Of a stretch of 49,418 bases of DNA, positions 18,174-49,418 are shown piece by piece. Under the pieces are notes generated by a model. The model saw only the letters and a program-made list of their open reading frames with translations. It was not told the DNA's origin and did no database searches. This DNA is from Gammaproteobacteria bacterium. Lineage in GTDB: Bacteria > Pseudomonadota > Gammaproteobacteria > JAADHQ01. The stretch lies in assembly GCA_013151795.1 (NCBI GenBank), contig JAADHQ010000052.1, positions 7,565 through 56,982 of the forward strand. Reading direction: 5' to 3'. A program made the translations under genes and the position numbers. Position 1 is the stretch's first letter; each line of letters opens with the position of its first letter.

Positions 18174-18175
18174 GC

Positions 18176-20544: not shown

Positions 20545-20627
20545 TCTGATGTTGCCGGTTTTTTTATTCAGAGCAGTAAGTTATCTATGTTGAATATATT
20601 TTACGATAAAAATATTATGAGTTAATA

Positions 20628-32716: not shown

Positions 32717-33385
32717 ATGACTAAACTCCAGTTTATAGAAAAGCCCGGGTATCGCGAGCGGCAGTTGCAGCGGCGATTTAATAATCCGTTATTTTCTGTG
32801 TCACAACAAATAGTCAGTCAGTCGCAGCTGGATGCCGCACGTCAGCAAGATAAAGAAGAAGTGGTTGTTTTTATCGAAGCCCTGCAGTCGCTATTGATGG
32901 AGGTTGGGTCTTTTTCTGGCATGGAAGAAACGGACAAGATCCTCGAAACCAAAGAACGTGCAGATAAACTCTATGAGCAATGTGCAGGGCTGACCGGTGA
33001 CCATAGTCGTGAGAGTGAAGGACTGTTGAAGCTAAATGAAGCCATTATGAAAAGTATCCGGTCTGCTGCAGGAGATGACCCGCTGGCAATTGAAGAATTA
33101 AGTCGCGAGCAACAAGCTCGGGAGATGCACCTCCGGTTGCTTGAATACCCACTCGTTGTGGACATGCTAAGAGCGGATAATGGCATAGAAGCGGATGAAT
33201 TACTGCCCACGATACTCTCTGAGAATGACGAATCAATTCATATAGCATTGAGTCTTTTTGATGCACCGCAGCGTGAGGTTCTGGCAGAAGAAGCTGATCG
33301 CTTGAAGCAGGATTTGCAGTCGCGTGGAGCCCTCAGCGAGTCGTTAGAAGCCAGGTTCAGCGCGATGACTTCCGCGCCACAATAG
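32717..33385 (+). CDS. Acidic, helix-rich hypothetical protein
   Basis: 222-aa ORF located 41 nt after the previous gene and followed by a hairpin terminator. No family recognised. Confidence 0.5.
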   Translation: MTKLQFIEKPGYRERQLQRRFNNPLFSVSQQIVSQSQLDAARQQDKEEVVVFIEALQSLLMEVGSFSGMEETDKILETKERADKLYEQCAGLTGDHSRESEGLLKLNEAIMKSIRSAAGDDPLAIEELSREQQAREMHLRLLEYPLVVDMLRADNGIEADELLPTILSENDESIHIALSLFDAPQREVLAEEADRLKQDLQSRGALSESLEARFSAMTSAPQ

Positions 33386-33420
33386 GTGGCTGGGTATAGA
33401 AGCCACCTCATTTCGTTTTC
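33385..33420 (+). terminator. Rho-independent terminator
   Basis: GGTGGCT (33385-33391) pairs with AGCCACC (33401-33407), followed by a T-rich tail. Confidence 0.55.
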
Positions 33421-33672
33421 TTAAAACATCCCCCCGAGTTTATTGGCAGAATATAGTTATTTGCTAATATTCCAGCGAATTATCCAGCCTTTCAGGCATT
33501 AAAGTTTAGTGTGAATTGACCGATATATGCTTAAAATGTTTAGATATTTTTCATAATAAGACTATAATTATCGGTGTGTAATACCCTGATTTTGTAAGGT
33601 AATATTTTTTCGCAAGTTATATAAATAATAAACTGTATTAATCACAAAAAATTAGAAATATAAGGAAAAGTT

Positions 33673-35895
33673 ATGGTGCAGCACATATGCAGTTATAGAA
33701 AACCGGGCGTTATTTTATTGTCCTGTTTGTTAGTCTGGTTTTCGCAAGTTAGCGCAGATGTGGGTGACAGTTTAGTCGTTAGCTCAGATGGCAGCCGATT
33801 ACGCAGTCTACCGTCAACTCGTGGTGTTGTTTTACAGAAACTAAAACGAGGTGATGCAGTAATTGAAATCCTGCGGAAGAAAAAATGGATTAATGTCAGC
33901 ATTCAGGGGCAAGGTATTAACGGATGGATATTTCATAAAAGCGTAAAGCCATTAGTACAGGATGCCAAAAGACTACAGTTAGCAAAAAAAATACAGAAAA
34001 AAACAAGTGGTATCAGTCATGGTTTGAAATTAAGTCTGGCAGAACTCGGCTATAAAAATGGTGTGCTGTTTGAAGGTTCTGCAGCTAATCATGCTCGACA
34101 ATTGTATTTTCAGGTGCCTCAGGATATGCCAACGAAGCGAGGCCTGCTTCGTATTCATTATCGTTTTTCACCCTTGTTGGAGGAACACTCCAATATGCGA
34201 ATTTTTGTAAATGATTCGCCCAGAAAGGTTGTTCGACTCAAGGGCAATTCTCATACCGGCTGGCTTTCTGTAAAACTGAATCGCGCAGATTTAAAAAAAC
34301 GTTTTGTGCAGATCGGCATCAAGAGTGCCATGTTGATTTCCAAAGACCGCTGTTTTGATGAGCGGGTTGGCGGTGCCTATTTACAGATTTTGCCAGATAC
34401 ATCCATAAACTGGGACCTGGGTAATAAAATAACCAGTATACGTAGTTACTGGCAGTTGTTGCCAGCAAAGGTAGTAGTGAGCCTGCCAAAGGGTGAGTTG
34501 AATGCCGAATTATTTCGTAATGCTTTGGGTTTGACGAAACAATTAATACGTAGTGGCCGTGAGGTTCGTTTTACACGTTTACCGAAGATGGGTGATATTG
34601 TGGTAGCGCCACGAGAAAATGTAAGCGCGTGGTTAAACGCAGAATACAAGGATCTGACGGTCGCTAACCTGGGTCAGGCTGGCAAGGATAACAACCTTGT
34701 ATTGATTAACTTACCGGACAGACAATTCCTTGCTGTATGGGGAACACATGACCAGCAGTCACTGAGTTTTCTTTCAGATTACTGGCGCAGTCTGGCAGCC
34801 AGTAGTGGCTACAAGGTTCATAGTGGGTCAGGGCCAGGAGAGCTGACTGAAGACAGTTATGTAATGAAATTAAAAGACCTCGGGATGAATACAGCCGCAA
34901 TTGAAATGGCAAGGAAGGCATCATGGGACACTACAATTAACCCGTCTCAATTACCACCAGGCCACCGATTAAACAAGGTCAGGGTGCGACTAATTGCTGC
35001 ACCGAGTACAACAGACAAGCCGGTTATGTTTTACAGTTACCTTAATGGAGTATTAATCAAGGCAGTACGGCTTGAAGATACAGGTGAGACACAGGATATA
35101 ATACTTTCTTTGCCGCAAGGGCAAATGGAGCGAACCAATAATCTTAATTTTGTTGCACAGCGGGACATATCTGCACTTGATATGGGTTGTACAGGTGAGC
35201 CTATGCGGTTCCCTATACAGATTAAACCGGATAGTGAAATAGAAACCATTCTTGATGATACCGTGCCAGAGCGATTTGCAAATTTACCTGCTTACTTCGC
35301 CAAAGGGTTTGATGTTTATCTGCCTGACTCGTATTTGCAGCAACCAGAAAGATCACTGAGTTTCCTTGCCTCATTTATGAATGATATGGATTTGCCTTTG
35401 CGGTCAGATCGATTACGTTTTTATCAGCCAAAAGACAAGATCGAACCAGGCAAACCTTTTATATTGTTAGGCCGGGCACAAACCGCGTTTGATAAACAGA
35501 GTGTTTACCTGGATAAGGGGCGTATTGATGTTATTAACCAACAGGGTAATGTGTTGCTTGCAGTAGATGCCTTGCCCAAGGTTAGTATTGCCCAGATTGT
35601 ACGGTCGAATGATGCCTATGGCTTGTGGTTAATACCGCCCGAGTCAGGGAAATTGGCTCGCATCAGTGACATGCATCTGAGCCAGGATGATGTAGCGTTC
35701 GCCGATAAGAATGGCGTTTTGTTAACGCTGGATAGCTCGCAGCCGGGTTTATCACGCGTAGCCTACCCTGATAATGTTGGCTGGTTTGAATTATTTGGTG
35801 AATACCGGTTCTGGTATTTTGCGATTGCATGGTTGTTGTTAACCAGCTTGATAATATATTTGTATCGTTTATCCAAGTCACACCGTAAAAACTGA
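33673..35895 (+). CDS. BcsB-like periplasmic synthase subunit with an N-terminal SH3b-like domain and a C-terminal TM anchor
   Basis: Signal peptide and SH3b-like LRSLPSTRGVVLQKLKRGDAV...WINV..GWI. LSLAELGY...LYFQVP...LRIHYRFSPLL...SNMRIFVND resembles the BcsB N-terminus. A single C-terminal TM (FWYFAIAWLLLTSLIIYLY) matches BcsB topology. Confidence 0.6.
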   Translation: MVQHICSYRKPGVILLSCLLVWFSQVSADVGDSLVVSSDGSRLRSLPSTRGVVLQKLKRGDAVIEILRKKKWINVSIQGQGINGWIFHKSVKPLVQDAKRLQLAKKIQKKTSGISHGLKLSLAELGYKNGVLFEGSAANHARQLYFQVPQDMPTKRGLLRIHYRFSPLLEEHSNMRIFVNDSPRKVVRLKGNSHTGWLSVKLNRADLKKRFVQIGIKSAMLISKDRCFDERVGGAYLQILPDTSINWDLGNKITSIRSYWQLLPAKVVVSLPKGELNAELFRNALGLTKQLIRSGREVRFTRLPKMGDIVVAPRENVSAWLNAEYKDLTVANLGQAGKDNNLVLINLPDRQFLAVWGTHDQQSLSFLSDYWRSLAASSGYKVHSGSGPGELTEDSYVMKLKDLGMNTAAIEMARKASWDTTINPSQLPPGHRLNKVRVRLIAAPSTTDKPVMFYSYLNGVLIKAVRLEDTGETQDIILSLPQGQMERTNNLNFVAQRDISALDMGCTGEPMRFPIQIKPDSEIETILDDTVPERFANLPAYFAKGFDVYLPDSYLQQPERSLSFLASFMNDMDLPLRSDRLRFYQPKDKIEPGKPFILLGRAQTAFDKQSVYLDKGRIDVINQQGNVLLAVDALPKVSIAQIVRSNDAYGLWLIPPESGKLARISDMHLSQDDVAFADKNGVLLTLDSSQPGLSRVAYPDNVGWFELFGEYRFWYFAIAWLLLTSLIIYLYRLSKSHRKN

Positions 35896-35947
35896 TTGAA
35901 TATAAAATTCAGCAGTGATGATAAGCAAACGGTAACGGGAGCATAGT

Positions 35948-37840
35948 GTGAACAGAGATGGGCGCGACATAGATGATGTTAAACACATCCCGTTGGGCGA
36001 GTTGCTGATTTCAGCTGGCGTGCTGGACAAAGATCATTTACAACAAGCATTATTAATACAAAAGGAATGGGGAACCCGGCTGGGAGATATTCTGCTGGCC
36101 AAGGGTTGGGTACGTGCACTTGATTTTTATCAGGTATTGGCAGACCACTACGAATTGCCTTTTATTAATCTGATGGAAGAGTCAGTTGATAACCGGCTAT
36201 TAAATGAATCTGATATTGGCATGTATGCTGAACACCTTATTTTACCCTGGAGAGAAAAGGGTGGAAGATTAACTGTAGTGATGGCTGATCCAGGTCCGGA
36301 AGCTATGGCCTTTGCATCTCAGCATTTCGGTAAAGATATTGATTTTGCAGTGACGTCGAAGTTCGACATCATGTGGATGTTGCAGGAAAATAATAATTCA
36401 TTCTTAAGTCATCAGGCAGTCTATGCACTGTCAGACAATGATATTGAAATGTCAGCTCGTCAGGTTTTTACTGGCAGGCAGTTAATTGTTATCTATTCTT
36501 TAATGACATTTTTTCTGTTGGCGTTAACAATGTATCCTATCGGTACATTAGTTACAGTGAATTTTATTATAGCTGTATTTCTTTTGGTTAATTTTGGGTT
36601 ACGTGCTTTTTTAACCTGGGTGGGTGGCGACCGCCATATAGACATCAAGGTTACAGACAATCAGGTTAGCATATTAGACGACAAGGAATTGCCGACCTAT
36701 ACCATTCTTGTACCCATGTACAAAGAGCCTGAAGTTATACAATACCTTGCCAGTTCTTTACGTAAACTTGATTATCCTTTATCAAAGCTGGATATAAAAT
36801 TAATTCTGGAAGAGGATGACGATGAGACAATCGAGGCGGCGAAAAAACTGGGTCTCGAAGGTATTTTCGAAATTATACGTGTCCCGGATTCTCTACCGAA
36901 AACAAAACCTAAAGCCTGTAACTATGCCCTGCATTTTGCGCGTGGTGAATATGTAACTATTTATGATGCAGAGGACAGGCCGGAACCAGACCAGCTAAAA
37001 AAAGCGGTCGTGGCATTCAGGGCTGCACCCGATAACACTGTTTGCATACAGGCCCGGCTTAATTATTTTAATGCCAATGAAAACTGGCTAACCCGCATGT
37101 TTACGCTGGAATATTCATTATGGTTTGATTTTTATCTGCCTGCACTCGAAGCACTTAAAATACCTATCCCGCTTGGGGGCACATCCAATCATTTTAAAAT
37201 GGATGTTCTGCGCGAGGTAGGTGCATGGGACCCTTTTAATGTGACCGAAGATGCCGACCTGGGTGTAAGAATTACACAAATGGGATACCGGGTAGGCGTT
37301 GTAAATTCCACAACCTTTGAAGAGGCGAACAGTCGATACGGTAACTGGATCAGGCAACGTTCACGTTGGATAAAAGGGTACATGCAAACCTACCTCGTGC
37401 ACATGCGGAGTCCGATTAAATTATATGCCAGCCTGGGTCATGTGGGTTTCTGGGGGTTTCAATTTTTCATCGGTGGGGCAGTGCTGAGCACTCTGCTTGC
37501 TCCACTTCTGTACGCTATGTATATCATGTGGCTAATAACAGATACACATGCTTACGATATAGTATTTCCACCATTGGTCTTATATATCAGCCTGATTAAT
37601 TTACTGGTGGGAAATGGTTATCTTATATATCTGTCAATGCTGGGGGCATTTAAACGGCATCTGTATTCATTGATTCCGTTTGGTCTGACCATGCCATTTT
37701 ACTGGTTGATGATGTCAGTGGCCGCATACAAGGCACTATGGCAATTAATACACAATCCGTTTTATTGGGAAAAAACATTGCATGGCATAACTAATTATAA
37801 TTCCGATGAGACAGAAGAAAAGGCCAAAGATGTCACCTAA
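35948..37840 (+). CDS. Processive family-2 glycosyltransferase (synthase) with an N-terminal MshEN/T2SSE_N c-di-GMP-binding-type domain
   Basis: GTG start 6 nt after GGGAG. Residues 15-67 form a tandem 24-aa MshEN motif. After that come 2 TM segments, the GT2 core (VPMYKE, YDAED, VTEDADLG, QRSRWIKG), 3-4 C-terminal TM segments and WEKTLHG. No PilZ domain. Confidence 0.85.
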   Translation: MNRDGRDIDDVKHIPLGELLISAGVLDKDHLQQALLIQKEWGTRLGDILLAKGWVRALDFYQVLADHYELPFINLMEESVDNRLLNESDIGMYAEHLILPWREKGGRLTVVMADPGPEAMAFASQHFGKDIDFAVTSKFDIMWMLQENNNSFLSHQAVYALSDNDIEMSARQVFTGRQLIVIYSLMTFFLLALTMYPIGTLVTVNFIIAVFLLVNFGLRAFLTWVGGDRHIDIKVTDNQVSILDDKELPTYTILVPMYKEPEVIQYLASSLRKLDYPLSKLDIKLILEEDDDETIEAAKKLGLEGIFEIIRVPDSLPKTKPKACNYALHFARGEYVTIYDAEDRPEPDQLKKAVVAFRAAPDNTVCIQARLNYFNANENWLTRMFTLEYSLWFDFYLPALEALKIPIPLGGTSNHFKMDVLREVGAWDPFNVTEDADLGVRITQMGYRVGVVNSTTFEEANSRYGNWIRQRSRWIKGYMQTYLVHMRSPIKLYASLGHVGFWGFQFFIGGAVLSTLLAPLLYAMYIMWLITDTHAYDIVFPPLVLYISLINLLVGNGYLIYLSMLGAFKRHLYSLIPFGLTMPFYWLMMSVAAYKALWQLIHNPFYWEKTLHGITNYNSDETEEKAKDVT

Positions 37841-39335
37841 AGTTAATCGGCTGGAATTGTTTCTTATTTTTATGGCAGTTACCTTGTTGCTGAGCCTGTG
37901 TAGCATCTGGTTGTTGTCGCATAATTATGTCAATGAATTTGCACTGAGCAGATGGGCTAAAGTATTGTCCGTACTGGATTCTCCAGAGACCCGGATAGAA
38001 CATCTGGGGCTTATATATCCTCATTTTCCTGTTTATGTCCTGATGCCATTTTATTACCTGCCTGGTCTTGATTCCGGAGCCGCACCATTTTTTGCCTCTG
38101 TTGTTGTTGGCGCAATATTAATTGGTATCTGGAATTATCATCTGGCCAGAAAGCAATACAGCTTGTCTATACGACTTGCGATGATTTTGCTTGTTGTTAG
38201 TCACCCGTATTTCCTGTGGGGGATAACGACGGGGGCACAGCATGCACTTAGTTTATTGATGTTTTACTGGTTGTATATGGCATTGGTAAGGCTGGTGAAT
38301 GTTCAGGATGTACGTTCATTTATTATGATCGGTCTGGTACTTGCGATTTATTTTTTTATTGATGAAAGAACCTTCTATTTATTTATGGCATTGTTGCCAC
38401 TCATTTCAATTATTGCCCCCAAACGTATGCTCAGAGAGTCTACGACCAGTGTCTATTTAATAATAGCCGCACCGTTGGCGGTTTCTGTCGCATCATGGGC
38501 CTATTTGAACTGGATATTTCATAATGATGCCAGTTTGTTTTTAAGTTCCTCCGGTTCTGCATTTCGCGGGGCATGGCAAGACACCCCTCATATTTCATGG
38601 CTTAGATCATATGGGGGCGATTTTTTTACACCCACGATTCTGACCGGGCTGCTTTCGTTAATGGCCTATCCTGTCTTGTTCTGGTTGTTGTATCACGCGA
38701 AACGACATCGAATATTACTGGGCAGTACGCTGGTATTATTGATACACCCGGTTGTGGCGTCTGGGCTGGCAACCAGTAATTATTTTCTTGAACATCCAAT
38801 GAATATGGTTTTTCTGTTTAGTGCAGGGATCATGGCAGGCATCGTATTGCTCCCAAGGGAAACAAAAAGTGCGAGAATGAGCTTGCTGGCATTGCTTGCA
38901 CTGAGTAGTGCGATGGCCTGGTTTAGTTTTTCCTGGTTTGCCACGGCCGATATGCAACGCTGGCAGTCTGCGGTAATGGGCAAGTCGTTAAAAGACAGTA
39001 GCCCTGGTGATGTTATTCTAGGGCAGTGGCTGGATAAAAACAGGCAGGTGACATTGCTTGATGACAAGACAGCCTATCGGGTTATAGTGGCAAGAGGTGA
39101 TGCAAAGAATCTGATATTGCCATTTTCATCCAAGTTCAAAACTAATATGAAAAACAAGTGGCCAAAGATAGCTCAACTGGCAGTATCGGAGCCTGGTTAC
39201 ATACATAATAAACAGGATCACCTGAATCAGCGTTTTCCTGATTTGTATTATAAGGGAATGCCGGGTTATAAGCTGGTATATGACAATCAGCATTGGCGCG
39301 TATATCGACAGATAATATCTGGAGCAAATCAATGA
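37806..39335 (+). CDS. Polytopic inner-membrane protein (about 10 or more TM segments plus a C-terminal soluble domain), function unknown
   Basis: Overlaps the GT2 gene. The alternative ATG at 37830 gives an 11-nt overlap. The hydrophobic repeats and topology recall GT-C/ArnT-like proteins, but no motif could be assigned. Confidence 0.7.
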   Translation: MRQKKRPKMSPKVNRLELFLIFMAVTLLLSLCSIWLLSHNYVNEFALSRWAKVLSVLDSPETRIEHLGLIYPHFPVYVLMPFYYLPGLDSGAAPFFASVVVGAILIGIWNYHLARKQYSLSIRLAMILLVVSHPYFLWGITTGAQHALSLLMFYWLYMALVRLVNVQDVRSFIMIGLVLAIYFFIDERTFYLFMALLPLISIIAPKRMLRESTTSVYLIIAAPLAVSVASWAYLNWIFHNDASLFLSSSGSAFRGAWQDTPHISWLRSYGGDFFTPTILTGLLSLMAYPVLFWLLYHAKRHRILLGSTLVLLIHPVVASGLATSNYFLEHPMNMVFLFSAGIMAGIVLLPRETKSARMSLLALLALSSAMAWFSFSWFATADMQRWQSAVMGKSLKDSSPGDVILGQWLDKNRQVTLLDDKTAYRVIVARGDAKNLILPFSSKFKTNMKNKWPKIAQLAVSEPGYIHNKQDHLNQRFPDLYYKGMPGYKLVYDNQHWRVYRQIISGANQ

Positions 39336-40330
39336 TGCGTTGTTTGACAATATGCTTGTTGATGTTTATGCCTGTCATGGTAAGCCATGCCAATATTGCA
39401 GATGACTATTATCAGGGCGTTAATTATCTGCAGACCCCTAATGTATCATTGAAATCTTTTACATCAATGCAATCCTTGCGCAAGATAAAAGAGGCGGGTG
39501 CTAATACCGTTGCACTTGTTGTGTTTTTACAGCAGGATTCAGCAACATCAAAATATTTAAAACCATCTTCTGCTGTCACTGAACATCAGTTAATTCAGGC
39601 GATCGCAGATGCACATGACATTGGTCTGAAGGTTATTCTTAAACCACAAATACTGGTCACAAATTCATGGGCGGGTGAAATTAATTTACCTGACACCGAT
39701 GATTGGCAGCAATGGTATAACAGTTATCAGAAGTTTATCGTGCGATACGCACAAATTGCACAAACCTATAATGTTGAAATTCTTGTGTTGGGTACAGAAT
39801 TACGATATGCAGCCAGGCAACCGCAGTTTCAACAGTTAATAACAGCGGTGCGTAAAAAATATCGTGGAGAGATAAGTTATGCCGCTCATGGTATCGCCGG
39901 GCTTGAGCGTTTTCCATTTTGGGATTTGCTGGATTCAGCCAGCGTGACTTTATACCCGTCCCTGGGCAAGGACTGGGATGAGAACAAGGCTGGTAAAGTC
40001 ATTTCAGAAAAAGTAAAAGCACTGCAGCTGGTTGCAAGCAAAATAGGTAAACCCTTCTGGATTGCGGAAATCGGTATATCATCTGCACAAGGGAGTCATC
40101 AGCACCCCTGGCTCGTTACAAACAATCAGCAAGGCGTACCGGATGCAGAATTACAGGCAAAGGTACTGGGCCTGTGGTTGAAGAATTTACAGCAGAGATG
40201 GGTAAGTGGAGTGATGGTATGGTGCTGGTTCAGTGATCACGACATGGGTGGCTTGACCGATACCGGGTTTACCATTCAGAACAAGGCAGCTGAAACGGTA
40301 GTCAGTTGTTACTGGAAAAAACAATGTTAA
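39332..40330 (+). CDS. Exported TIM-barrel glycoside hydrolase (clan GH-A-like)
   Basis: ATGA overlap with the upstream gene and GGAG 7 nt before the ATG. Signal peptide ending SHA. LVLGTEL and FWIAEIG are candidate acid/base and nucleophile strands. Confidence 0.6.
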   Translation: MMRCLTICLLMFMPVMVSHANIADDYYQGVNYLQTPNVSLKSFTSMQSLRKIKEAGANTVALVVFLQQDSATSKYLKPSSAVTEHQLIQAIADAHDIGLKVILKPQILVTNSWAGEINLPDTDDWQQWYNSYQKFIVRYAQIAQTYNVEILVLGTELRYAARQPQFQQLITAVRKKYRGEISYAAHGIAGLERFPFWDLLDSASVTLYPSLGKDWDENKAGKVISEKVKALQLVASKIGKPFWIAEIGISSAQGSHQHPWLVTNNQQGVPDAELQAKVLGLWLKNLQQRWVSGVMVWCWFSDHDMGGLTDTGFTIQNKAAETVVSCYWKKQC

Positions 40331-41298
40331 TGGTGAGTATTTTTGAGAAACAATTGTTTCAGGCGCGGGATAACGTGACCGTCGATATTTTCTGGTACAG
40401 GCGCGCCGAGTAAATAAAGAATGGTTGGCATGGTGTCATAAATATAGACGCCCTTGCCATGTTTGGTTTCGGGTTTTATACCCGGGTTAATCGCCATCCA
40501 GGGAATAGTGAAATCCTCTGGACGCTGATACCAGTGAGTTTTGTCTTTACCGCCATGATCGGCAGTGATGATGAGCAAGGTATCGTTGGCGTGTTTACTG
40601 TTTTTGATGGTGTTGTAGATCTGGCCTATAGCCTTGTCAGCAGCCGGAATGGCCTGGTTGAGATATTCATTGCTCATCCAGCCATATTGGTGGCCTGTTT
40701 CGTCAGGTTCCCTGATATGAATAAAGGTCATATTGAAAAACTGTTTGGGCCAGACATGAGAAAATTTTTCAGATAACTCATTTGCATGGGTTTGGTGGTA
40801 TTTAATGTCTTGTTGACCTGGGCCATAGATATAGTCCAGGGAGTCAGGGTGAAACAGGAAGCCGAGTTTTTTCTTGGAAAAAAAGGCAGCATTTGTTTTT
40901 CCGGTTTTTTTCAAAATCTGAAAGACAGTAGCAAAAGGTACGTGACCGGGCAGAGGTTTATTAGTGGTGATCTTGTGTCGCGAGTAATCCAGGCCCGTTA
41001 GCATAGAGGTGTGGCTCGGTAGTGTAACGGATCGCTGGATAGTTTGCGCTTCCGGGTAATAAAGATTACTACGGCTTAGTTCAAAAAGGTTTTTTGCATT
41101 GCTTCTGTTAATCGCATCAGGCCGCAAGCCATCGATACTGACAAGGACAATATGTTTGATAGCCGGGTTTTTAACAGGTGAAGGGCCAAACGGGATATTG
41201 GTACAGGACGTCAGCTGGGTTAAAGCGAAGACAGTTATAAGTAACCGAATCAGGTTACTTAAAGGTATTTTATGATGAAATGATTTTGATAAATTCAT
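40327..41298 (-). CDS. Lipoprotein of the nucleotide pyrophosphatase/phosphodiesterase (NPP, alkaline-phosphatase superfamily) family
   Basis: Lipobox LTQLTSC. VSIDGLRPD, TLPSHTSMLTGL (catalytic Thr context) and ITADHGG. Confidence 0.8.
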   Translation of the reverse strand: MNLSKSFHHKIPLSNLIRLLITVFALTQLTSCTNIPFGPSPVKNPAIKHIVLVSIDGLRPDAINRSNAKNLFELSRSNLYYPEAQTIQRSVTLPSHTSMLTGLDYSRHKITTNKPLPGHVPFATVFQILKKTGKTNAAFFSKKKLGFLFHPDSLDYIYGPGQQDIKYHQTHANELSEKFSHVWPKQFFNMTFIHIREPDETGHQYGWMSNEYLNQAIPAADKAIGQIYNTIKNSKHANDTLLIITADHGGKDKTHWYQRPEDFTIPWMAINPGIKPETKHGKGVYIYDTMPTILYLLGAPVPENIDGHVIPRLKQLFLKNTHH

Positions 41299-41308
41299 GG
41301 TTATAGTC

Positions 41309-41330
41309 TTTACGAAAAAATTTTCGTAAA
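41309..41330. promoter_or_regulatory. Perfect 10-bp inverted repeat TTTACGAAAA-AA-TTTTCGTAAA in the divergent control region
   Basis: Read directly from the sequence. It sits 11 nt upstream of the NPP gene's ATG and about 70 nt upstream of the OMP-CotH operon. Confidence 0.4.
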
Positions 41331-41398
41331 AGATTGCTCCGATTTATACTGAATATTAGCATTATTTTTAAGTGCACCGTAAGAGCTGGATTAATAAT

Positions 41399-42241
41399 AT
41401 GTTTACCAACAATTTGAATGGCAGACCAAACGTAATGTTGCAGCAAATAGCATTGATTACAGTTTTGTTTATAGTGACCGGTTCGGCACAAGCTGGTGGT
41501 TGGTTGCGCTCTGAAGGAGAGCACCGGTACTCGGCATATCTATCCAATTCTTCATCAAACAGGTCCTGGGACAGGTATGGCAATGATACCGTGTCAGGTT
41601 GCACGTCAAACGTCACTGCATTAACGCATGAATATGAATACGGTTATTCCTATTACCGTACCTTGTTTGGCAAGGTTAATATGGCCACATCAGAATGCGG
41701 GGGTGACAAGGTCAGTGGTCTGGGCGATGTCTATCTGGGTGTCCGTGGCAGGTTAAATCTGTACAAGAACGGAAGTGCATGGGAAGCCATTCTTATAATA
41801 CCAACCGGATATGATGGACAGCGGAGTAATCGGCTGGGATATGGCGAGCTGGGTATCGAGCTGGGATTATACGGGACGACCAAATATTCAAAAAAATCGA
41901 CTTTTGCCTATGGTGGAAGCTTTCGCTTCTGGAACGGTTCACCTTCTGATCAATTCCGCACAAGGGCAAGCTGGTCATATAAGCAGAATAAACAATGGGC
42001 AATCAGAACCAGTCTGGAGGGTAACTTTTCCCTGAATAATGGTAATTCTGTAACGCCTGCTTCTATAAACGGTGATTTTGAATCAGAGTTTGATGTTATC
42101 CGTGGAAAGATAGGCCTGAGGCGTCAGATAGGCCCGAGGCTCGGGTTGACTGTCGGGTTGTACAAGAATTTGTGGGGTCGTAATGCCAGTCAGCGTCAGG
42201 GTATATATCTTAATATCGCATATGTGTGGGGTAGGTTATAA
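41399..42241 (+). CDS. Putative outer-membrane beta-barrel protein
   Basis: Signal peptide ending SAQA. Gly/Tyr/Ser-rich alternating pattern and a C-terminal strand IYLNIAYVWGRL. The start is ambiguous (GTG 41372, ATG 41399 or ATG 41435). Confidence 0.45.
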   Translation: MFTNNLNGRPNVMLQQIALITVLFIVTGSAQAGGWLRSEGEHRYSAYLSNSSSNRSWDRYGNDTVSGCTSNVTALTHEYEYGYSYYRTLFGKVNMATSECGGDKVSGLGDVYLGVRGRLNLYKNGSAWEAILIIPTGYDGQRSNRLGYGELGIELGLYGTTKYSKKSTFAYGGSFRFWNGSPSDQFRTRASWSYKQNKQWAIRTSLEGNFSLNNGNSVTPASINGDFESEFDVIRGKIGLRRQIGPRLGLTVGLYKNLWGRNASQRQGIYLNIAYVWGRL

Positions 42242-43927
42242 ATGAGCATGAGTCAAAGGAAAAAAATCGTGATATGGCTAGGCATGATTAGTAGTTTATG
42301 CTTGTGGTGGCAAACAGGTATGGCGCAGGAAACGGTCCCGGTGTTATCTGTCCACCTGGAAATGAAAGCACGTGATGCTGATGTTTTATTTAAAAAAGAT
42401 CCATATGATCGTTCAACCTTTCCTGTCAGCATGCTTGTTGACGGAAAACAATTGAATGGTCGGATTTCAGTAAAAGGAAGTTTCAGCAGAAGTTTTGATA
42501 AGAAATCACTGAAGATAAAACTTGATAAAGGCTCGAAGTGGCGTGGACAGAGGCGTATTGCCCTTAACGCTATGGCGACTGATACTTCGATGATGCGTGA
42601 ATGGCTGGCATGGGATCTGATTCACACACTAGGCATGGCAGCGCCCAAGGTGAATTATACGCAGTTATATATTAACCGGCGATACATCGGTATGTTTCTG
42701 CATATTGAGTGGATTGACCCTGGCATGCTGGCAAAATTTGGACTGGGTGACGATGGTGAATTTTTCCATCCGCTTGATAGTACCTTTTGTGGTGATCTTG
42801 GCTTGCAGTCTGTTGCCGATGTTGAACGTTGTTGGACGAAGTTATCTCCACGAGATAATGATTATTCACCGCTTAAAAAGTTAGTGAAGCAGTTGCATGA
42901 TGTGACAGCAGATGAATTTGACAGCTTCCTTGAGAAAAACTTTGATGTAGAGTCTGTTATAAACTGGATTGCCGTGAATGCGATTACCAGTAATGGTGAT
43001 ACATATAATAAAAACTATTTTATTTATTTCAGTCGAAAAAAAGGACGTTGGGTTCTTATTCCTTGGGATTACGATTTATCCTTTGGTCGAAACTGGGACG
43101 AGTTTCTTGAGTACCCGGCGAATATTCTGAATGATAACTTTCAATATTATTATCCACTTGAACTGGGGCTGCCAAACCCGTTAAAAGATAAATTATTGAA
43201 AAACCCTGTTTTGCTCGAGCGTCTCAAACAGAAACTCAGAGGTTTAATGGGGATGCCTGTGGAAGGTTATGCCGCCACGCCAGTCTGGTTCACACCCGAG
43301 GTTATGCATGACCGCATAGACGCACTAACATCTGTATTAACAGATAACCTGAATCGTGAACGCTATACAACAACGAATGCACAAAAATTACGTGAGCAGG
43401 CCAGCGCGCTGAAAGACTACGTGAGCTTTCGCTATAATTATCTTCGCAAGACAGTATTACAAGTGACAAACTGGGTTCCGGATCGTGCGAGCATTAAAGT
43501 TTCCAAGGCCGGCGAGACTGAATCGTGGGTAGACGGGTTTGGTAAAACATTGGGGACAATACAGGCTCTGAGCCTGAATCGTGCTGCAGAGATCGCTGTC
43601 GATGTAGAGCGGATGACCGTACCTGAATTCCTTCCGGAAGATACAGATGCAAGTCGATGTGTAAAAAGAACCTGGTTTCTGGTTAATAAAACGCCGTTTA
43701 GTCAGTTAAATGTAAATTTGTCGTGGCAATATTTACATGAAAATTCCAGAAATACCGAAGTTGGGAAAAATCTTGATGATGAAAGCAAATTAAATCTTTG
43801 GGTGATGGACTACGAAAAATGGAGGCAATTACCTGTAAGCATTAACAAGATTTCCAATGTGATAGAGACAAAGGGCATGGATATCAAAGCTGGCAGGTTG
43901 TATCGTTTTGTTGCTTGTCAGGAATAA
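42242..43927 (+). CDS. Exported CotH-family atypical kinase
   Basis: The start abuts the upstream stop codon. Signal peptide ending GMAQE. KKSLKIKLD and NKNYFIYF...WVLIPWDYDLSFG are typical CotH-domain motifs. Confidence 0.8.
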   Translation: MSMSQRKKIVIWLGMISSLCLWWQTGMAQETVPVLSVHLEMKARDADVLFKKDPYDRSTFPVSMLVDGKQLNGRISVKGSFSRSFDKKSLKIKLDKGSKWRGQRRIALNAMATDTSMMREWLAWDLIHTLGMAAPKVNYTQLYINRRYIGMFLHIEWIDPGMLAKFGLGDDGEFFHPLDSTFCGDLGLQSVADVERCWTKLSPRDNDYSPLKKLVKQLHDVTADEFDSFLEKNFDVESVINWIAVNAITSNGDTYNKNYFIYFSRKKGRWVLIPWDYDLSFGRNWDEFLEYPANILNDNFQYYYPLELGLPNPLKDKLLKNPVLLERLKQKLRGLMGMPVEGYAATPVWFTPEVMHDRIDALTSVLTDNLNRERYTTTNAQKLREQASALKDYVSFRYNYLRKTVLQVTNWVPDRASIKVSKAGETESWVDGFGKTLGTIQALSLNRAAEIAVDVERMTVPEFLPEDTDASRCVKRTWFLVNKTPFSQLNVNLSWQYLHENSRNTEVGKNLDDESKLNLWVMDYEKWRQLPVSINKISNVIETKGMDIKAGRLYRFVACQE

Positions 43928-43933
43928 TTTTAA

Positions 43934-45253
43934 ATGACAGCGCAAGAAAAAAAATACACGTTACTGGAAAAATTGTTACGACTGTTTACCGTTATCAAAC
44001 CCGGTGAAGGTAAGGCGGTCGTGTTATTATTGCTGCAGGCATTTATTCTTTTATTTGCATATTACCTGCTAAAGCCCGCTCGGGAATCGTTACTGTTATC
44101 TGAAAATAGCGCAGAAATACGAAGTTACGCAGTTGCTTTTCAGGCGCTGGTGCTTCTCATGCTGATGCCAGCCTATAATATTTTATTTCGTCACTATAAA
44201 CATGATCGCAGCAGGATATATATCTGGGTTACCCTGTTTTTTATTTGTAATTTATTATTATTTTATGTGCTGGGCGCTGCAGAAATAAAACTCGGCATTG
44301 TATTTTTTATCTGGCTAGGTGTGTTTAACGTTATGGTGGTTGCGCAGTTCTGGGCATTTTGCGCAGACCTGTATAATGTGGAAAGCGGCCAGAGATTATT
44401 TGTTGTTATTGCTGTCGGGGCATCACTGGGTGCGTTACTGGGAGCAAGTTTTTCCAAACAGGCAATTCAATATACCGGTCCGTTAGGGCTGATGTTACTG
44501 GCCGTTGTTTTACTCTGTATTACGATTATTCTTGGTTTGTTTGCCAGTAGAAATCTACCTGTACAGGATCGTAGCCACAGCCAGTTATTCAAGGGCAAGT
44601 CAAAGTGGATTCCCGGCAGTTTTCATCTGGTGTTTTCAGATCGTTATTTATTGTTGATAGCGACGTTTGTTGTGTTGTTGAACTGGATAAACAGCACGGG
44701 CGAATTCATACTGGCAAAAATGGTCGTTAGTCATGCAGAGGGTTTAATCGCTGCAGGTAGTGAAATCAGCAAAGGTAACCTGATCGGCAGTTTTTATGGT
44801 GACTTCTATACATGGGTAAACCTGTTCAGCCTGCTGTTTCAATTGTTACTGGTATCCAGAATATTTAAATACTTCGGGGTGAGATTTGCGTTGTACATCT
44901 TGCCTGTAATCAGCCTGATTGGTTATGGCCTGATTGTTTTTATACCTGTGTTCAGCATTATAAGGCTGGTAAAGATTCTTGAGAACAGTGTAGATTATTC
45001 TATTCAGACAACAACACGTCATACTTTATTTTTGCCGGTCAATACGGCTGCTAAATATGAAGGCAAAACTGTTATTGATACATTTTTCTGGCGTTTCGGA
45101 GACTTGATTCAGGCCGGTGTTATCTATGCAGGCACAACCTGGCTAAGTATGGAGGTATACCAGTTTGCGATACTGAATATGATACTTGCGGTAGTCTGGA
45201 TAGGCGTTGTTGTCGGCATTACCCGCGAGCATAAAAAATTATCTGCGGATTAA
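43934..45253 (+). CDS. MFS-type transporter resembling the TLC (ATP:ADP antiporter / Npt) family
   Basis: Starts 6 nt after cotH. About 11-12 TM segments. The N-terminal segment GEGKAVVLLLLQAFILLFAYYLLKPARESLLL resembles the TLC-family N-terminus. This assignment needs HMM confirmation. Confidence 0.5.
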   Translation: MTAQEKKYTLLEKLLRLFTVIKPGEGKAVVLLLLQAFILLFAYYLLKPARESLLLSENSAEIRSYAVAFQALVLLMLMPAYNILFRHYKHDRSRIYIWVTLFFICNLLLFYVLGAAEIKLGIVFFIWLGVFNVMVVAQFWAFCADLYNVESGQRLFVVIAVGASLGALLGASFSKQAIQYTGPLGLMLLAVVLLCITIILGLFASRNLPVQDRSHSQLFKGKSKWIPGSFHLVFSDRYLLLIATFVVLLNWINSTGEFILAKMVVSHAEGLIAAGSEISKGNLIGSFYGDFYTWVNLFSLLFQLLLVSRIFKYFGVRFALYILPVISLIGYGLIVFIPVFSIIRLVKILENSVDYSIQTTTRHTLFLPVNTAAKYEGKTVIDTFFWRFGDLIQAGVIYAGTTWLSMEVYQFAILNMILAVVWIGVVVGITREHKKLSAD

Positions 45254-45275
45254 GGTATTTTTATATGAATCTTTG

Positions 45276-45473
45276 TTAGTAGTGCGGCGGCGGGGTTTCC
45301 TCTGATGCATGTGCAATAATAGAAACCTCCTGAACCTGGCTGCGTATACTTTTAAGTTCCAGTTGTAGTTTAATGATCAACTCTTCCTGTTTTAAAATAG
45401 TGTGTGTCAGCTCATCAATTGCAGACTCCTGATGAGTAATACGAATTTCCAGATCTGTGATACGGTTTTCCAT
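45276..45473 (-). CDS. slyX: SlyX-family coiled-coil protein
   Basis: 65 aa. MENRITDLEIRITHQESAIDELT is typical of SlyX. Confidence 0.8.
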   Translation of the reverse strand: MENRITDLEIRITHQESAIDELTHTILKQEELIIKLQLELKSIRSQVQEVSIIAHASEETPPPHY

Positions 45474-45493
45474 GTTAATTTCTCATGTTCAGG

Positions 45494-46289
45494 CTAAAAA
45501 TAAATATCATAGCGTGTATTTTTACTTTCAATAGTAGCGGCAGGTTTTAGTTCACCTAAAGGCGGTGCAACTTTTGGGCGTTTAACAACCACACGTTTTG
45601 GTTTGCAGTTTATCGCGTTTTCCAATACCTGCACAGCATCGTCCGTCCTTGCCGGCAATATCATGAAAATAGCGCATTTCCTTTTTTACCAGTGCAGATT
45701 TATTTCGTGCAGGATACATGGGGTCGAGGTAAATAGTATCGGGAGTTTGCGATGCAAGTTGCTGTAAATAATTAATGGCATTTTCGTTGTGTAATCTCAT
45801 ATTGTTTGTTATCAAGCCGCTGATATCGGGATCATTCAATGCTCGATGTAAACCATTTTGTAATAGCTCATAAATAACCGGGTTACGTTCCAGCATTGTA
45901 ACGTGGCAGCCCAGCGTTGCAAAAACAAAACTGTCGCGTCCAAGTCCGGCTGTTGTATCCAGTATTACCGGATTGAACCCGGGTTTTATGCCAGCAGCAC
46001 GGGCGAGAGGCTGGTTTCTTCCTCCCCCGAACAGTCTTCGGTGAGCGGCCTTGCCCCGGGTGAAATCGATAGTGACTGGCCCCGGCGATGGCTTACCTGT
46101 TTTTTGAAGTTTACAGATATAACCCGGTGCGTGTTCATGTGATTCATATATTAATAAATATTCAGCATGTCCCAGTGCCGATAACAGAGGGATATTATAC
46201 AGGCATGATTTTTCCTGCACTAAAACCTGCAAGGATGATTGTTCGGTAAACAGGGCAATATTCGACTGATTAAGTGTTGTGTGAGTCAT
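45494..46289 (-). pseudogene. rsmJ: 16S rRNA (guanine1516-N2)-methyltransferase RsmJ, reading frame broken by +1 nt near 45640-45647
   Basis: The N-terminal frame has AAHRRLFGGGR, TAGLGRDSF, YLDPMYP and KKEMRYF, then runs into nonsense and a stop at 45582. The conserved C-terminus DDAVQVLENA..KRVVVKRPKVAPPL...RYDIYF-stop continues in another frame to 45494. The total length of 796 nt is not a multiple of 3. Confidence 0.75.
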
Positions 46290-46388
46290 TAATGAAATCA
46301 GTGTCCGGTGAGAGCTATTTACAAGTAACAGAAGTGTGTGTAATCCTGTGGATGATTGCAACTCTAATTCAGGCAGTGAAGGCTGGTT

Positions 46389-46934
46389 ATGGCAGTAAGG
46401 CATCTTGGAAGATTAATTCCCCGGGTTAATACATCGGCGTTCATTGATGAAAGTGCGCAGGTGATAGGCGACGTAGAACTTGGGCAGGATAGTTCTGTCT
46501 GGCCCATGGCCGTTATTCGTGGTGATATTCAAAAAATTATTATTGGTCAAAATACGAATATTCAGGATGGCTGTGTTTTGCATGTAACACATGACAGTCA
46601 GTATCAACCAGGAGGCTGTGAACTTCGAGTAGGTGATTATGTGACAGTGGGTCACGGGGTGATTTTACATGGTTGCACAATTAATGATCATTGTTTGATT
46701 GGTATGGGCAGTACAATTATGGATAATGCGGTACTTGAAGAAAATGTGATGTTGGCAGCAGGTAGCCTGGTAACTCCCGGTAAGGTGTTGAAAAGCGGGT
46801 ATTTATATGTGGGTAGTCCTGCAAAAGCCAAACGATTATTAACCAGAGAAGAGATTGAATACTTTGAATATGCAGCTAATCACTATGTAAAATTGAAAAA
46901 CCAGTACAAATCAGGCGATAATACAACCAAATAA
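46389..46934 (+). CDS. Gamma-carbonic-anhydrase-like hexapeptide-repeat protein (YrdA family)
   Basis: 181 aa. VIGDVELGQDSSVWPMAVIRGD, NIQDGCVLHVT and GYLYVGSPAK are collinear with YrdA. Confidence 0.85.
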   Translation: MAVRHLGRLIPRVNTSAFIDESAQVIGDVELGQDSSVWPMAVIRGDIQKIIIGQNTNIQDGCVLHVTHDSQYQPGGCELRVGDYVTVGHGVILHGCTINDHCLIGMGSTIMDNAVLEENVMLAAGSLVTPGKVLKSGYLYVGSPAKAKRLLTREEIEYFEYAANHYVKLKNQYKSGDNTTK

Positions 46935-46973
46935 TCAAAAAAATTAAAGCGTCAGGATGTAGCAGGGAATAAA

Positions 46974-47306
46974 ATGGATATATTTGTAGGCAACCTTCCA
47001 AAAAAAACATCGGTACTGGAATTAAGAAAACTGATCGGTGATGTAGGCAGTGCGCGATTTCGAGTGATAACCGGCAAGCAGAAAAATGGTCGCAAGTGTT
47101 GTTACGGACACGCGATTATCGGTTCCAGCCAAACAGGCACGGAAGTTATTACACGTCTTGATGGAGTTGAATTCAATGGCTGTAGTATTACAGCCAGGCA
47201 TTTTCTACATCGAAGTGAACACAATGAACGTCGTTCGAGAATGGTTTATCCAATAGGCTGGAATGGTGTTAATCGTCGGCGTGGTGACAGACGCGCACAT
47301 ATCTAG
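46974..47306 (+). CDS. Small RRM-type RNA-binding protein with an Arg-rich tail
   Basis: RNP2-like IFVGNL, RNP1-like CYGHAII and a C-terminal RRRGDRR. Confidence 0.55.
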   Translation: MDIFVGNLPKKTSVLELRKLIGDVGSARFRVITGKQKNGRKCCYGHAIIGSSQTGTEVITRLDGVEFNGCSITARHFLHRSEHNERRSRMVYPIGWNGVNRRRGDRRAHI

Positions 47307-47359
47307 TATTTTTTCAGGGCAGAGTTTATTTTTTTCCGGTTAGCGGTTTTAAAAAATAT

Positions 47360-48196
47360 TTAATTCTTTATTTTTCCCCGTAGCGCAGCAATAACTGTTT
47401 TTGTTTCAGGTCTTATTCCTCTCCATATATAAAAAGACTCGGCCGCTTGTTCAACCAGCATACCTAATCCATCCATACATGATTCTGCACCATGCTGTTT
47501 ACCCCACACCATAAAGCTGGTGGGTTCACTGGCATACATCATATCGTACAAGTGGGTTGACTCATTAATGCAGTCAACCGGAACAGGAGGGACGTCACCC
47601 TGCAGGCTTGCAGCTGTTCCGTTAATGATCAGATCAAATGTTTGTTCTGATAATTGCTCAAAACCGGATGCTTTAATATTGCCGAAGTCAGAAAACAAAT
47701 CAGCCAGGTCAATAGCCTTGTTATGAGTGCGATTGGCAATGGTGACAGACTGTGGTTGTTGTTCCAGTATGGGAAGCAGTACGCCGCGTACAGCACCGCC
47801 TGCACCAATAATCAGTATGCGTTGATTTTGTAAATTTATTAAATGATTTTTTAAAAGGTCGGTTACGAGACCAATACCATCAGTGTTGTCACCAGTATAT
47901 TGTCCATTATTAATAGTAATAGTATTGACCGCGCCGGCAAGCTCGGCACGTTGGCTGCGTTCGTTTACAAGATCCCATGCCTGTTGTTTAAAGGGTACGG
48001 TAATATTCAACCCTTTGCCGTTTTCCTGGGCAAAGTTATTAACACTTTTATTAAAGTTGTCCAGATCAACCAGTATGGCTTCGTATGACAGGTTCTGCTT
48101 GCATTGTTCAGCAAATAACTTGTGAATGTCGGGGGATTTACTATGCGCAATGGGATTGCCCATCACTGCATAGCGATCAGGTTTAGTACTATTCAT
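47360..48196 (-). CDS. aroE: Shikimate dehydrogenase
   Basis: ATG at 48196 (MNSTKPDRYAVMGNPIAHSKSP), NITVPFK and IIGAGGAVRG. 278 aa. The ORF track merges it with the upstream gene only because that gene is frameshifted. Confidence 0.9.
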   Translation of the reverse strand: MNSTKPDRYAVMGNPIAHSKSPDIHKLFAEQCKQNLSYEAILVDLDNFNKSVNNFAQENGKGLNITVPFKQQAWDLVNERSQRAELAGAVNTITINNGQYTGDNTDGIGLVTDLLKNHLINLQNQRILIIGAGGAVRGVLLPILEQQPQSVTIANRTHNKAIDLADLFSDFGNIKASGFEQLSEQTFDLIINGTAASLQGDVPPVPVDCINESTHLYDMMYASEPTSFMVWGKQHGAESCMDGLGMLVEQAAESFYIWRGIRPETKTVIAALRGKIKN

Positions 48197-48198
48197 TA

Positions 48199-49418
48199 TT
48201 AGCCTGAAAAAATGCCTTTGAGCATGAAGAAAATTATAATAGCAAGGCCAGCACCTGCAGGCAGTGTTACGATCCATGACATAAAGATAGTGCGTACAAC
48301 GCGCATATTGACTGCCCCCATGCCTCGTGCAATGCCGACACCGAGTACAGCACCAACCAGGGTATGCGTTGTTGAAATAGGCAAGCCTGTTCCTGATGCA
48401 ATTACAACGGTTGTAGCCGCTGCCAGTGTAGCGGCAAAACCCCGTGGGTGTCAGGTCAGTAATGCCTTTACCGACAGTTGCGATAACGCGTTTACCATAC
48501 ATAACCAGACCGGCAATAATACCGACACCACCAATGGCCAGTATCCATGCAGGTAAAACCGCTTTTTGTGAGAGCTCCCCGGATTCGGCGATGCTAACAA
48601 CAGCCGCCATTGGCCCAACAGCATTGGCAACGTCATTAGAGCCGTGTGCAAATGCCATCGCGCAGGCTGTTACCATCATGAGTATGCCGAATATTTTTTC
48701 TACATTGGTGTAATGAAAGTCGCGGTCAGCATTTGGGTCTATTTTTATTTTGCCGATGGCATAATAACCAAAAAACATGGTTATAAAGCCAAAAATTGCT
48801 GCCAGTGAATAATTTTGTAATGCACTTGTTTCAAGGCCGATGTGTTTCAGGCCTTTGAATAAGGTTACCAGTGTTACAATAAAGCCAACCACAAACATAT
48901 ACATGGGAACATAACGTTTGGCATTTTTTATTGGATCAGGTGTCAGGAATATCAGTTTTTGTACGCTCATGAATAACAGAAAAGCAAGTACGCCAGACAT
49001 AATCGGTGAAACAATCCAGCTCGCAACAATAGTGCCAACCTTGGGCCAATGGATGGCGTCCAGGCCTATGCCGACAGCTGCAAAACCAACAATGGCGCCG
49101 ACGATAGAATGTGTGGTTGAAACCGGCCAGCCTTTTTTTGAAGCGATTAGTAACCAGATCCCTGCAGCCAGTAATGAAGACAGCATACCGTAAATAACAA
49201 GATCCGGACTGCCTGTCAGCATGTCGTTATCAAGTATACCTTTACGAATGGTCTTGGTTACTTCACCACCGGCGAGATAGGCACCGGCGAATTCAAATAT
49301 TGCGGCAATGATGATTGCCTGTTTTAATGTTAGCGCCTTACTGCCAACGGATGTTGCCATGGCATTGGCAACATCGTTTGCGCCAATTCCCCATGCCATA
49401 AACAAACCAAAGATAATT
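48199..49418 (-). pseudogene. PiT-family inorganic phosphate transporter. The 5' end lies beyond the window, and a +1 frameshift sits in a G4T4 run (plus strand AAAACCCC, 48436-48443).
   Basis: The N-terminal frame has GANDVANAM twice and reads up to GITDLTPT. The conserved continuation GFAATLAAATTVVIASGTGLPISTTHTLVGAVLGVG...stop (48199) is in another frame. Confidence 0.8.

Follow-up and report, generated by a model that had tools for sequence, protein, structure and literature searches.

A four-gene exopolysaccharide-type cluster is located at positions 33673 to 40330 of a 49,418-nucleotide stretch of a gammaproteobacterial metagenome-assembled genome (contig JAADHQ010000052.1; the whole stretch is referred to below as the window). 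Its genes are named here after their counterparts in the xag operon of Xanthomonas and the sfz clusters of Zetaproteobacteria. The first gene (33673..35895, + strand) encodes a 740-amino-acid (aa) BcsB-like periplasmic subunit of the Sfz1 type, with a signal peptide, a weak SH3b-like head, a BcsB-homologous body, and a C-terminal transmembrane (TM) anchor. It is followed on the same strand by genes for an XagB/Sfz2-type processive GT2 synthase with a putative N-terminal MshEN receptor module for cyclic di-GMP (c-di-GMP) and no PilZ domain (35948..37840); a polytopic XagC/Sfz3 membrane protein with a predicted GT-C fold (37806..39335); and an exported XagD/Sfz4 glycosidase of GH113, a beta-1,4-mannanase family (39332..40330). 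A predicted 12-stranded outer-membrane beta-barrel of the XagA/Sfz5 type, a candidate polymer exporter, is encoded further downstream (41372..42241, +).

An earlier note on this DNA, made from the sequence alone, had described the four genes as co-directional and tightly linked, and direct reading bore out both this and their coordinates. A 52-nucleotide (nt) gap, which contains a Shine-Dalgarno-like GGGAG ribosome-binding site, separates the stop codon of the first gene (35893-35895) from the GTG start codon of the synthase gene (35948). Two overlaps follow. The synthase gene stops at 37838-37840, inside the third gene. The overlap is 35 nt long with translation of the third gene from ATG 37806 (509 aa) and 11 nt long with translation from ATG 37830 (501 aa), which is the start annotated by NCBI and likely the true one. 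The TGA stop codon of the third gene (39333-39335) and the ATG of the fourth gene at 39332 form an ATGA overlap. A scan for promoters and terminators performed no better than on shuffled sequence (36 versus 31.6 and 14 versus 11.1). The domain calls of the earlier note (a BcsB-like protein, an MshEN-GT2 protein without PilZ, a polytopic protein lacking recognizable motifs, and an exported clan GH-A glycosidase) likewise agreed with our Pfam and NCBIfam scans.

The anticipated BcsB-family match of the 740-aa protein was found with Pfam (E value, 2.2e-13), but only over residues 119 to 249. An hhalign comparison with canonical Xanthomonas BcsB (probability, 98.9%) spanned residues 111 to 659, so that BcsB homology covers most of the periplasmic body, beyond the N-terminal part matched by Pfam. 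A profile of the BcsB-like family matched the Escherichia coli BcsB structures 6yg8 and 7lby at 1e-12, and NCBI annotates the protein as BcsB. Its scores with the BcsB equivalog models (17 bits versus cutoffs of 750 to 945) place the homology at the superfamily level. The SH3b-like head that had been proposed for this protein was recovered in part: the SH3_3 match was weak (E value, 0.0046; 17.6 bits, under the 27-bit cutoff), whereas homologues carry precomputed SH3_3 annotations. A word-index homology search with the BcsB-like protein returned only 16 relatives and was replaced by iterative hidden Markov models run on the open reading frames (ORFs) of fetched loci.

The synthase matched several GT2 families in Pfam as well as MshEN (PF05157; 5e-13), which occupies residues 15 to 149, N-terminal to the GT2 domain. 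The GT2 domain contains TED at position 433 and QRSRW at position 470, with YDAED at positions 339 to 343 in the family alignment. PilZ was not matched on this protein in the Pfam and NCBIfam scans. The family profile matched the MshE structure 5htl at 2e-13 and BcsA (7lby_A) at 5e-11, as well as the N-domains of PilB and PilF. Identity with Xanthomonas XagB was 57% across 606 residues, the whole length with the MshEN region included, and identity with the product of the Mariprofundus ferrooxydans PV-1 gene that agrees with sfz2 in size and position was 61%. A homology search returned more than 8000 relatives, some of which are labeled "glycosyltransferase XagB" by the Joint Genome Institute (JGI).

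Within the MshEN module, residues 15 to 67 form a 53-residue signature with the exact 24+5+24 spacing: PLGELLISAGVLDKDHLQQALLIQ, the linker KEWGT, and RLGDILLAKGWVRALDFYQVLADH. Every glycine and hydrophobic position is intact in both 24-residue motifs, as is the five-residue linker, and the sequence fits the relaxed published motif except for its final histidine (PMC5013675). The NCBIfam model for the c-di-GMP motif, NF053729, scored 56.2 bits (cutoff, 38). Judged by its sequence, XagB carries an intact MshEN c-di-GMP motif. Among the homologues tested, NF053729 was also above its cutoff in Xanthomonas, Mariprofundus (two copies), Burkholderiales (L009), a Thermomicrobia relative (L028), Thermotogae, and Sporomusaceae. 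A strict MshEN regular expression, which matched 10 of 80 loci, undercounts, as Xanthomonas XagB passes NF053729, and this count is not usable as a measure of motif loss. The module is repeated in some relatives: the Mariprofundus synthases (L007:9818-11872 and L005) have two copies of the c-di-GMP motif (NF053729, 112 bits over two stretches), and a 926-aa XagB homologue of Beggiatoa alba (P0007) has three tandem MshEN domains.

The third protein had no Pfam or NCBIfam match, and an XagC profile search against PDB sequences did not match any solved structure. For other members of the family, Pfam yielded no more than hints of PMT_2 and DUF2142. Homologues are named "membrane protein XagC" by JGI, and Xanthomonas proteins were identified at 31 to 32% identity (E values, 5e-64 and 1e-62). 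An AlphaFold2 model of the protein had a mean predicted local confidence (pLDDT) of 90.5 and a predicted TM score (pTM) of 0.90. When this model was compared with the PDB with Foldseek, the top 37 matches were all GT-C proteins, the best being ArnT (5f15; E value, 2e-5; query-normalized TM score, 0.54), and they included DPY19, AftA, PglB/OST, PMT, AftB, ALG enzymes, and EmbA/B. XagC/Sfz3 thus looks like a GT-C glycosyltransferase in the predicted model. In the family, D186 is invariant, and E65 (in the loop that follows TM helix 1), E187, and R188 are nearly so. Helix order and the positive-inside rule suggest that E65 and D186-E187-R188 face the periplasm, a placement that would suit the active site of GT-C enzymes, whose catalytic acidic residue is in the first extracytoplasmic loop. 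No gene for the synthesis of a polyprenyl-phosphate-sugar donor was seen in the cluster.

The fourth protein matched GH113 in Pfam at 1.2e-47 and the beta-1,4-mannanases 5ylh and 3civ in the PDB at 1.4e-28 and 1.9e-21, respectively. Two glutamates, in GTE and AEIG, both align with glutamates in the best-matching mannanase, 5ylh, and we take them to be the catalytic pair. In phmmer searches the protein matched the product of the Xanthomonas gene in the xagD position at 3e-56 and that of the PV-1 gene in the sfz4 position at 4e-73.

The 289-aa protein encoded at 41372..42241 was modeled by AlphaFold2 as a signal peptide followed by a 12-stranded barrel (pLDDT, 88.3). A profile search of this family against PDB sequences gave nothing useful, and Pfam scans of family members gave only a hint (Phenol_MetA_deg); fold comparison alone worked. 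Foldseek matched the model to the COG4313 outer-membrane channel 4rl8 (E value, 1.7e-10; TM score, 0.70 to 0.75) and to the FapF secretion channel. The protein matched the product of the PV-1 gene in the sfz5 position (phmmer, 4e-30) and that of the Xanthomonas ORF directly upstream of xagB (hhalign probability, 99.1%). In the two Xanthomonas loci L010 and L011 the order is the 289-aa family, XagB, XagC, and GH113, which indicates that XagA is a homologue of the 289-aa protein and Sfz5 and not of BcsB. Members of the homologue cluster are called only "hypothetical protein," the name XagA not appearing among them, and we infer from gene order that the Xanthomonas ORF is xagA. On this basis XagA, Sfz5, and the 289-aa barrel protein are one family, which would explain why neither xagA (Kato et al.) nor sfz5 (Koeksoy et al.) was found in Ferriphaselus. 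By its modeled fold, XagA/Sfz5 resembles an outer-membrane channel, which makes it a candidate for polymer export. The earlier statement that no BcsC-like porin is present is literally true, but it passed over this candidate barrel about 1 kb downstream.

In order to evaluate the conservation of the neighborhood, the ORFs of 80 loci with relatives of the synthase (83 to 43% identity; one genome per species) were searched, first with the proteins of the window as queries and afterwards with iterated profiles. The loci came from Pseudomonadota, Bacteroidota, Chloroflexota, Actinomycetota, Synergistota, Thermotogota, Cyanobacteria, and other phyla. The BcsB-like gene was directly upstream of the synthase gene on the same strand in 55 of the 74 loci with enough flanking sequence, and the XagC gene was directly downstream in 66 of 76. 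GH113 was found in 17 loci and the 289-aa family in 33. The retention of this order across phyla indicates that the linkage of the four genes is more than chance. Bacteroidota loci (L038-L065; Mucilaginibacter and Pedobacter) keep the trio of BcsB-like protein, GT2, and XagC, with GH5 in place of GH113. Over all loci, members of one histidine-kinase family lie close to the synthase in 39, a hint that control may be exerted in another way.

In M. ferrooxydans PV-1 (L007), the order of genes is BcsB-like, GT2, XagC, GH113, the 289-aa family, CotH, and a TLC transporter, and the gene lengths agree with those of sfz1-6 in Table 2 of PMC8250860. The window from 33673 to 45253 is colinear with sfz1-sfz6 plus the ATP/ADP transporter (L007 and L005), except for one inserted gene. 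This gene (40327..41298, −) encodes a phosphodiesterase/sulfatase-like protein of the alkaline-phosphatase superfamily (Pfam Phosphodiest, 2.3e-25). It is convergent with xagD, overlapping its stop codon by 4 nt, and lies between xagD and the barrel gene; among the 80 loci it was found only in the nearest relative (L001). Its distribution identifies it as a lineage-specific insertion. After the barrel gene, a gene for a Sfz6-like exported CotH-domain protein with a signal peptide (42242..43927, +; Pfam CotH, 1.1e-61) is syntenic with the Mariprofundus sfz6 position. It is followed by a gene for a TLC/MFS-type ATP/ADP-transporter-like protein (43934..45253, +; Pfam TLC, 4.8e-12), a conserved neighbor of sfz clusters that holds the same position in L001, L004, L005, and L007. 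The CotH-transporter pair recurs downstream of the cluster in these four loci. One idea is that the transporter might supply periplasmic ATP to the exported CotH kinase.

The window also contains genes for a dCache-HAMP-PAS-GGDEF-EAL protein (9597-12341) and a degenerate GGDEF protein (8054-8935, −), both of which the earlier note had pointed out. They are separated from the cluster by more than 21 kb and by unrelated genes, and a functional link based on proximity was rejected. In the degenerate protein, GSKQF replaces GGDEF and RxxD (RWSD) is kept exactly five residues upstream, so that the protein may be a receptor for c-di-GMP and not a cyclase. Its gene adjoins a class I adenylate cyclase gene (5178-8015). 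Near the other end of the window, a single 681-aa ORF (47360-49405, −) consists of a PHO4 phosphate-transporter region (residues 7 to 324) and a complete shikimate dehydrogenase (residues 414 to 676); this is either a gene fusion or the result of a lost stop codon or frameshift.

The arrangement, which had been put forward as new, has already been named. The xagABCD genes of Xanthomonas campestris and X. oryzae pv. oryzicola were reportedly described by Tao et al. in 2010. The operon is upregulated in rpfG mutants of Xanthomonas, and xagA and xagB are needed for the elevated biofilm formation of these mutants (PMC3609779). The same four-gene set was reported as "BcsB-like + xagB + xagC + xagD" in stalk-forming iron oxidizers (Kato et al. 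2015, PMC4643136), and Koeksoy et al. (2021) renamed the cluster sfz1-4/sfb1-4 and added sfz5, of unknown function, and sfz6, which encodes SH3 and CotH domains; an ATP/ADP antiporter and phosphomannose isomerase were noted as neighbors of sfz clusters (PMC8250860). As for the synthase, the domain order "MshEN - Glyco_trans_2_3" had a catalogue entry by 2016 (PMC5013675, Supplementary Table 4). These publications and the JGI names contradict the novelty suggested in the earlier note. Its statement that this is not a characterized synthase system stands for the biochemistry but not for the genes, which are described as xag, bcsB-xagBCD, and sfz/sfb. At the level of sequence, every testable defining feature of the named Xag/Sfz system was found, and the locus is a further copy of it. 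In the searched literature we did not find the predicted GT-C fold of XagC/Sfz3, the predicted barrel of XagA/Sfz5, or the equivalence of XagA and Sfz5.

The window resembles Xanthomonas xagABCD in its XagB (57% identity including MshEN), XagC (31 to 32%; E values of about 1e-63), GH113 XagD, and XagA family protein, and in an expected role in biofilm exopolysaccharide. In Xanthomonas, however, the barrel gene xagA is directly upstream of xagB and no BcsB-like gene is adjacent, whereas in the window the BcsB-like gene has the position of xagA and the barrel gene is downstream of xagD. The resemblance to sfz1-sfz6 of Zetaproteobacteria and sfb1-4 of Ferriphaselus is closer in arrangement, with the same genes in the same order: BcsB-like protein, MshEN-GT2, membrane protein, glycosidase, Sfz5, CotH protein, and ATP/ADP transporter (PMC4643136, PMC8250860). 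The differences are the gammaproteobacterial host, a shorter CotH protein (561 aa versus 1415 to 2270 aa for Sfz6), an SH3-like element on the BcsB-like protein, the inserted alkaline-phosphatase-family gene, and a single pair of MshEN motifs in the synthase compared to two in Mariprofundus. Rhodobacter sphaeroides Rsph17029_0522 has the same MshEN - Glyco_trans_2_3 order (PMC5013675, Supplementary Table 4) and is likened to the window synthase by domain order alone.

Like BcsA-BcsB, the window pair consists of a processive membrane GT2 and a BcsB homologue with a C-terminal TM anchor, and by analogy it would be c-di-GMP responsive by design. The differences listed in the earlier note were confirmed: the B-like gene precedes the synthase gene, and the N-terminal MshEN contrasts with the C-terminal PilZ of BcsA. 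In addition, the hydrolase is GH113 rather than GH8, and a GT-C partner is added. None of the ORFs scanned from 32717 to 49405 matched a BcsC tetratricopeptide repeat (TPR) porin or a GH8 BcsZ. The lack of PilZ, BcsC, and GH8, with scores far under the equivalog cutoffs, sets the locus apart from canonical Bcs systems. E. coli NfrB, which is activated by c-di-GMP, also joins a GT2 to an MshEN-type module, and NCBIfam NfrB models match the MshEN region of the window synthase. In NfrB, the MshEN is at the C terminus and export is by NfrA, which combines TPRs with a barrel. With the window synthase, NF008411 scored only 38 bits (cutoff, 1170). With its reversed domain order, the window protein is not an NfrB-type synthase. 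The statement that NfrB has no BcsB partner is true of E. coli but not in general, as an Achromobacter nfr cluster includes a BcsB homologue.

The best explanation, and one we consider likely, is that the locus represents, in a gammaproteobacterium, the Xag/Sfz family of synthase-dependent exopolysaccharide secretion systems. Orthology, synteny, predicted folds, and motifs are shown here, and the steps of the mechanism are drawn by analogy with BcsA-BcsB and NfrB. Binding of c-di-GMP to the cytoplasmic N-terminal MshEN of the XagB-type GT2 would free the enzyme to polymerize a nucleotide sugar and to pass the chain across the membrane by way of a channel of its own. The BcsB-like protein, anchored by its C-terminal TM helix, would take and guide the chain in the periplasm, where the GT-C-fold XagC may decorate it from a polyprenyl-phosphate-sugar donor or may serve as a scaffold. 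The GH113 enzyme would trim or free the chain, and the 12-stranded XagA/Sfz5 barrel would be the likely exit through the outer membrane. The system would be expected to serve in attachment to surfaces or in forming a matrix. Circumstantial evidence suggests that the polymer probably has beta-1,4-mannosyl-type linkages: the hydrolase belongs to GH113, phosphomannose isomerase is a neighbor of the clusters in Zetaproteobacteria, and the beta-1,4-mannanase ManA disperses the biofilm of Xanthomonas, in which xag expression is linked to c-di-GMP/Clp (PMC8042644).

Several points weigh against this explanation. GH113 and ManA speak for mannan only circumstantially, and the GH5 enzymes that Bacteroidota loci carry instead of GH113 do not discriminate between mannan and glucan. 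Xanthomonas xag lacks an adjacent BcsB-like gene, which suggests that members of the family can do without this subunit. The polysaccharide porins BcsC, PgaA, and AlgE have 16 to 18 strands, and a 12-stranded barrel is smaller. The first MshEN motif begins with proline rather than arginine and the second ends in histidine, outside the relaxed published motif, and affinity for c-di-GMP could thus be low. NF053729 was below its cutoff in two alphaproteobacterial homologues and Actinosynnema, and it had no match in the N-terminal region of the one Mucilaginibacter homologue tested (L039). Control by c-di-GMP is, to judge from these scores, probably not universal in the Xag/Sfz family. No experiment on the polymer product, on binding of c-di-GMP by XagB, or on an XagB-BcsB complex was found in the searched literature.

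It is conceivable, though in our judgment unlikely, that the MshEN domain of this synthase plays a purely structural role, without binding c-di-GMP, with control being transcriptional or exerted via another partner. The proline and histidine at the motif ends, the eroded motifs of many homologues, and the adjacent histidine kinase at many loci would be in line with this, and some MshEN domains, such as that of XpsE, do not bind c-di-GMP (PMC5013675). However, the glycine and hydrophobic positions and the five-residue linker are intact, the NF053729 score is well over the cutoff (56 versus 38 bits), and the relaxed motif as published permits proline as its first residue (PMC5013675).

We also considered a divergent cellulose synthase, in which a BcsA/BcsB variant with MshEN in place of PilZ makes beta-1,4-glucan. 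In favor of this are the NCBI annotation and the real BcsB homology, the GT2 profile match to BcsA at 5e-11, and the D, DxD, TED, and QxxRW motifs in common. The similarity to BcsA is nonetheless remote (TIGR03030, 52 bits versus a cutoff of 699), the hydrolase is of the GH113 mannanase family and not a GH8 BcsZ, and a GT-C partner is foreign to cellulose systems. Moreover, separate canonical bcs genes coexist with the cluster: in Xanthomonas cucurbitae (L010) a bcsA-bcsB pair (16669-21209) is located roughly 5 kb downstream of the xag genes, and bcsABZC is present in Ferriphaselus (PMC4643136). For these reasons "cellulose synthase" was rejected as the best label, and production of cellulose by this locus seems quite improbable. 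Most improbable is a cluster for twisted-stalk biosynthesis in an iron-oxidizing bacterium, as proposed in the literature for sfz/sfb (PMC4643136, PMC8250860), because, despite full synteny with sfz1-6 of M. ferrooxydans PV-1, the association with stalks is purely correlative, the core cluster is present in organisms not known for iron oxidation or stalks (Xanthomonas, Mucilaginibacter, Pedobacter, Sulfitobacter, and Thermomicrobia), and the subset of window ORFs scanned gave no indication of iron oxidation.

Membership in the Xag/Sfz family remains the preferred explanation, and a wider proposal, which we offer tentatively and hold to be more doubtful than probable, can be built on it. Xag/Sfz would be a distinct, phylum-spanning class of synthase-dependent exopolysaccharide systems, in which an MshEN-gated GT2 works with a BcsB-like partner and a dedicated GT-C protein, XagC, glycosylates the nascent periplasmic chain from a lipid-linked donor. 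The small 12-stranded barrel XagA/Sfz5, not a TPR porin, would export a beta-mannan-type product, and an exported CotH kinase fed by the ATP/ADP transporter might modify the matrix.

With more than 8000 synthase homologues in many phyla, the Xag/Sfz family is very widespread, and biofilm formation, and possibly also iron-oxide stalks, are linked to it. The xag and sfz nomenclatures, treated in the literature as only partly overlapping, are unified here. The MshEN motif in XagB, the GT-C-like XagC, and the outer-membrane-channel-like XagA/Sfz5 may serve as hypotheses for work on both xag and sfz systems.

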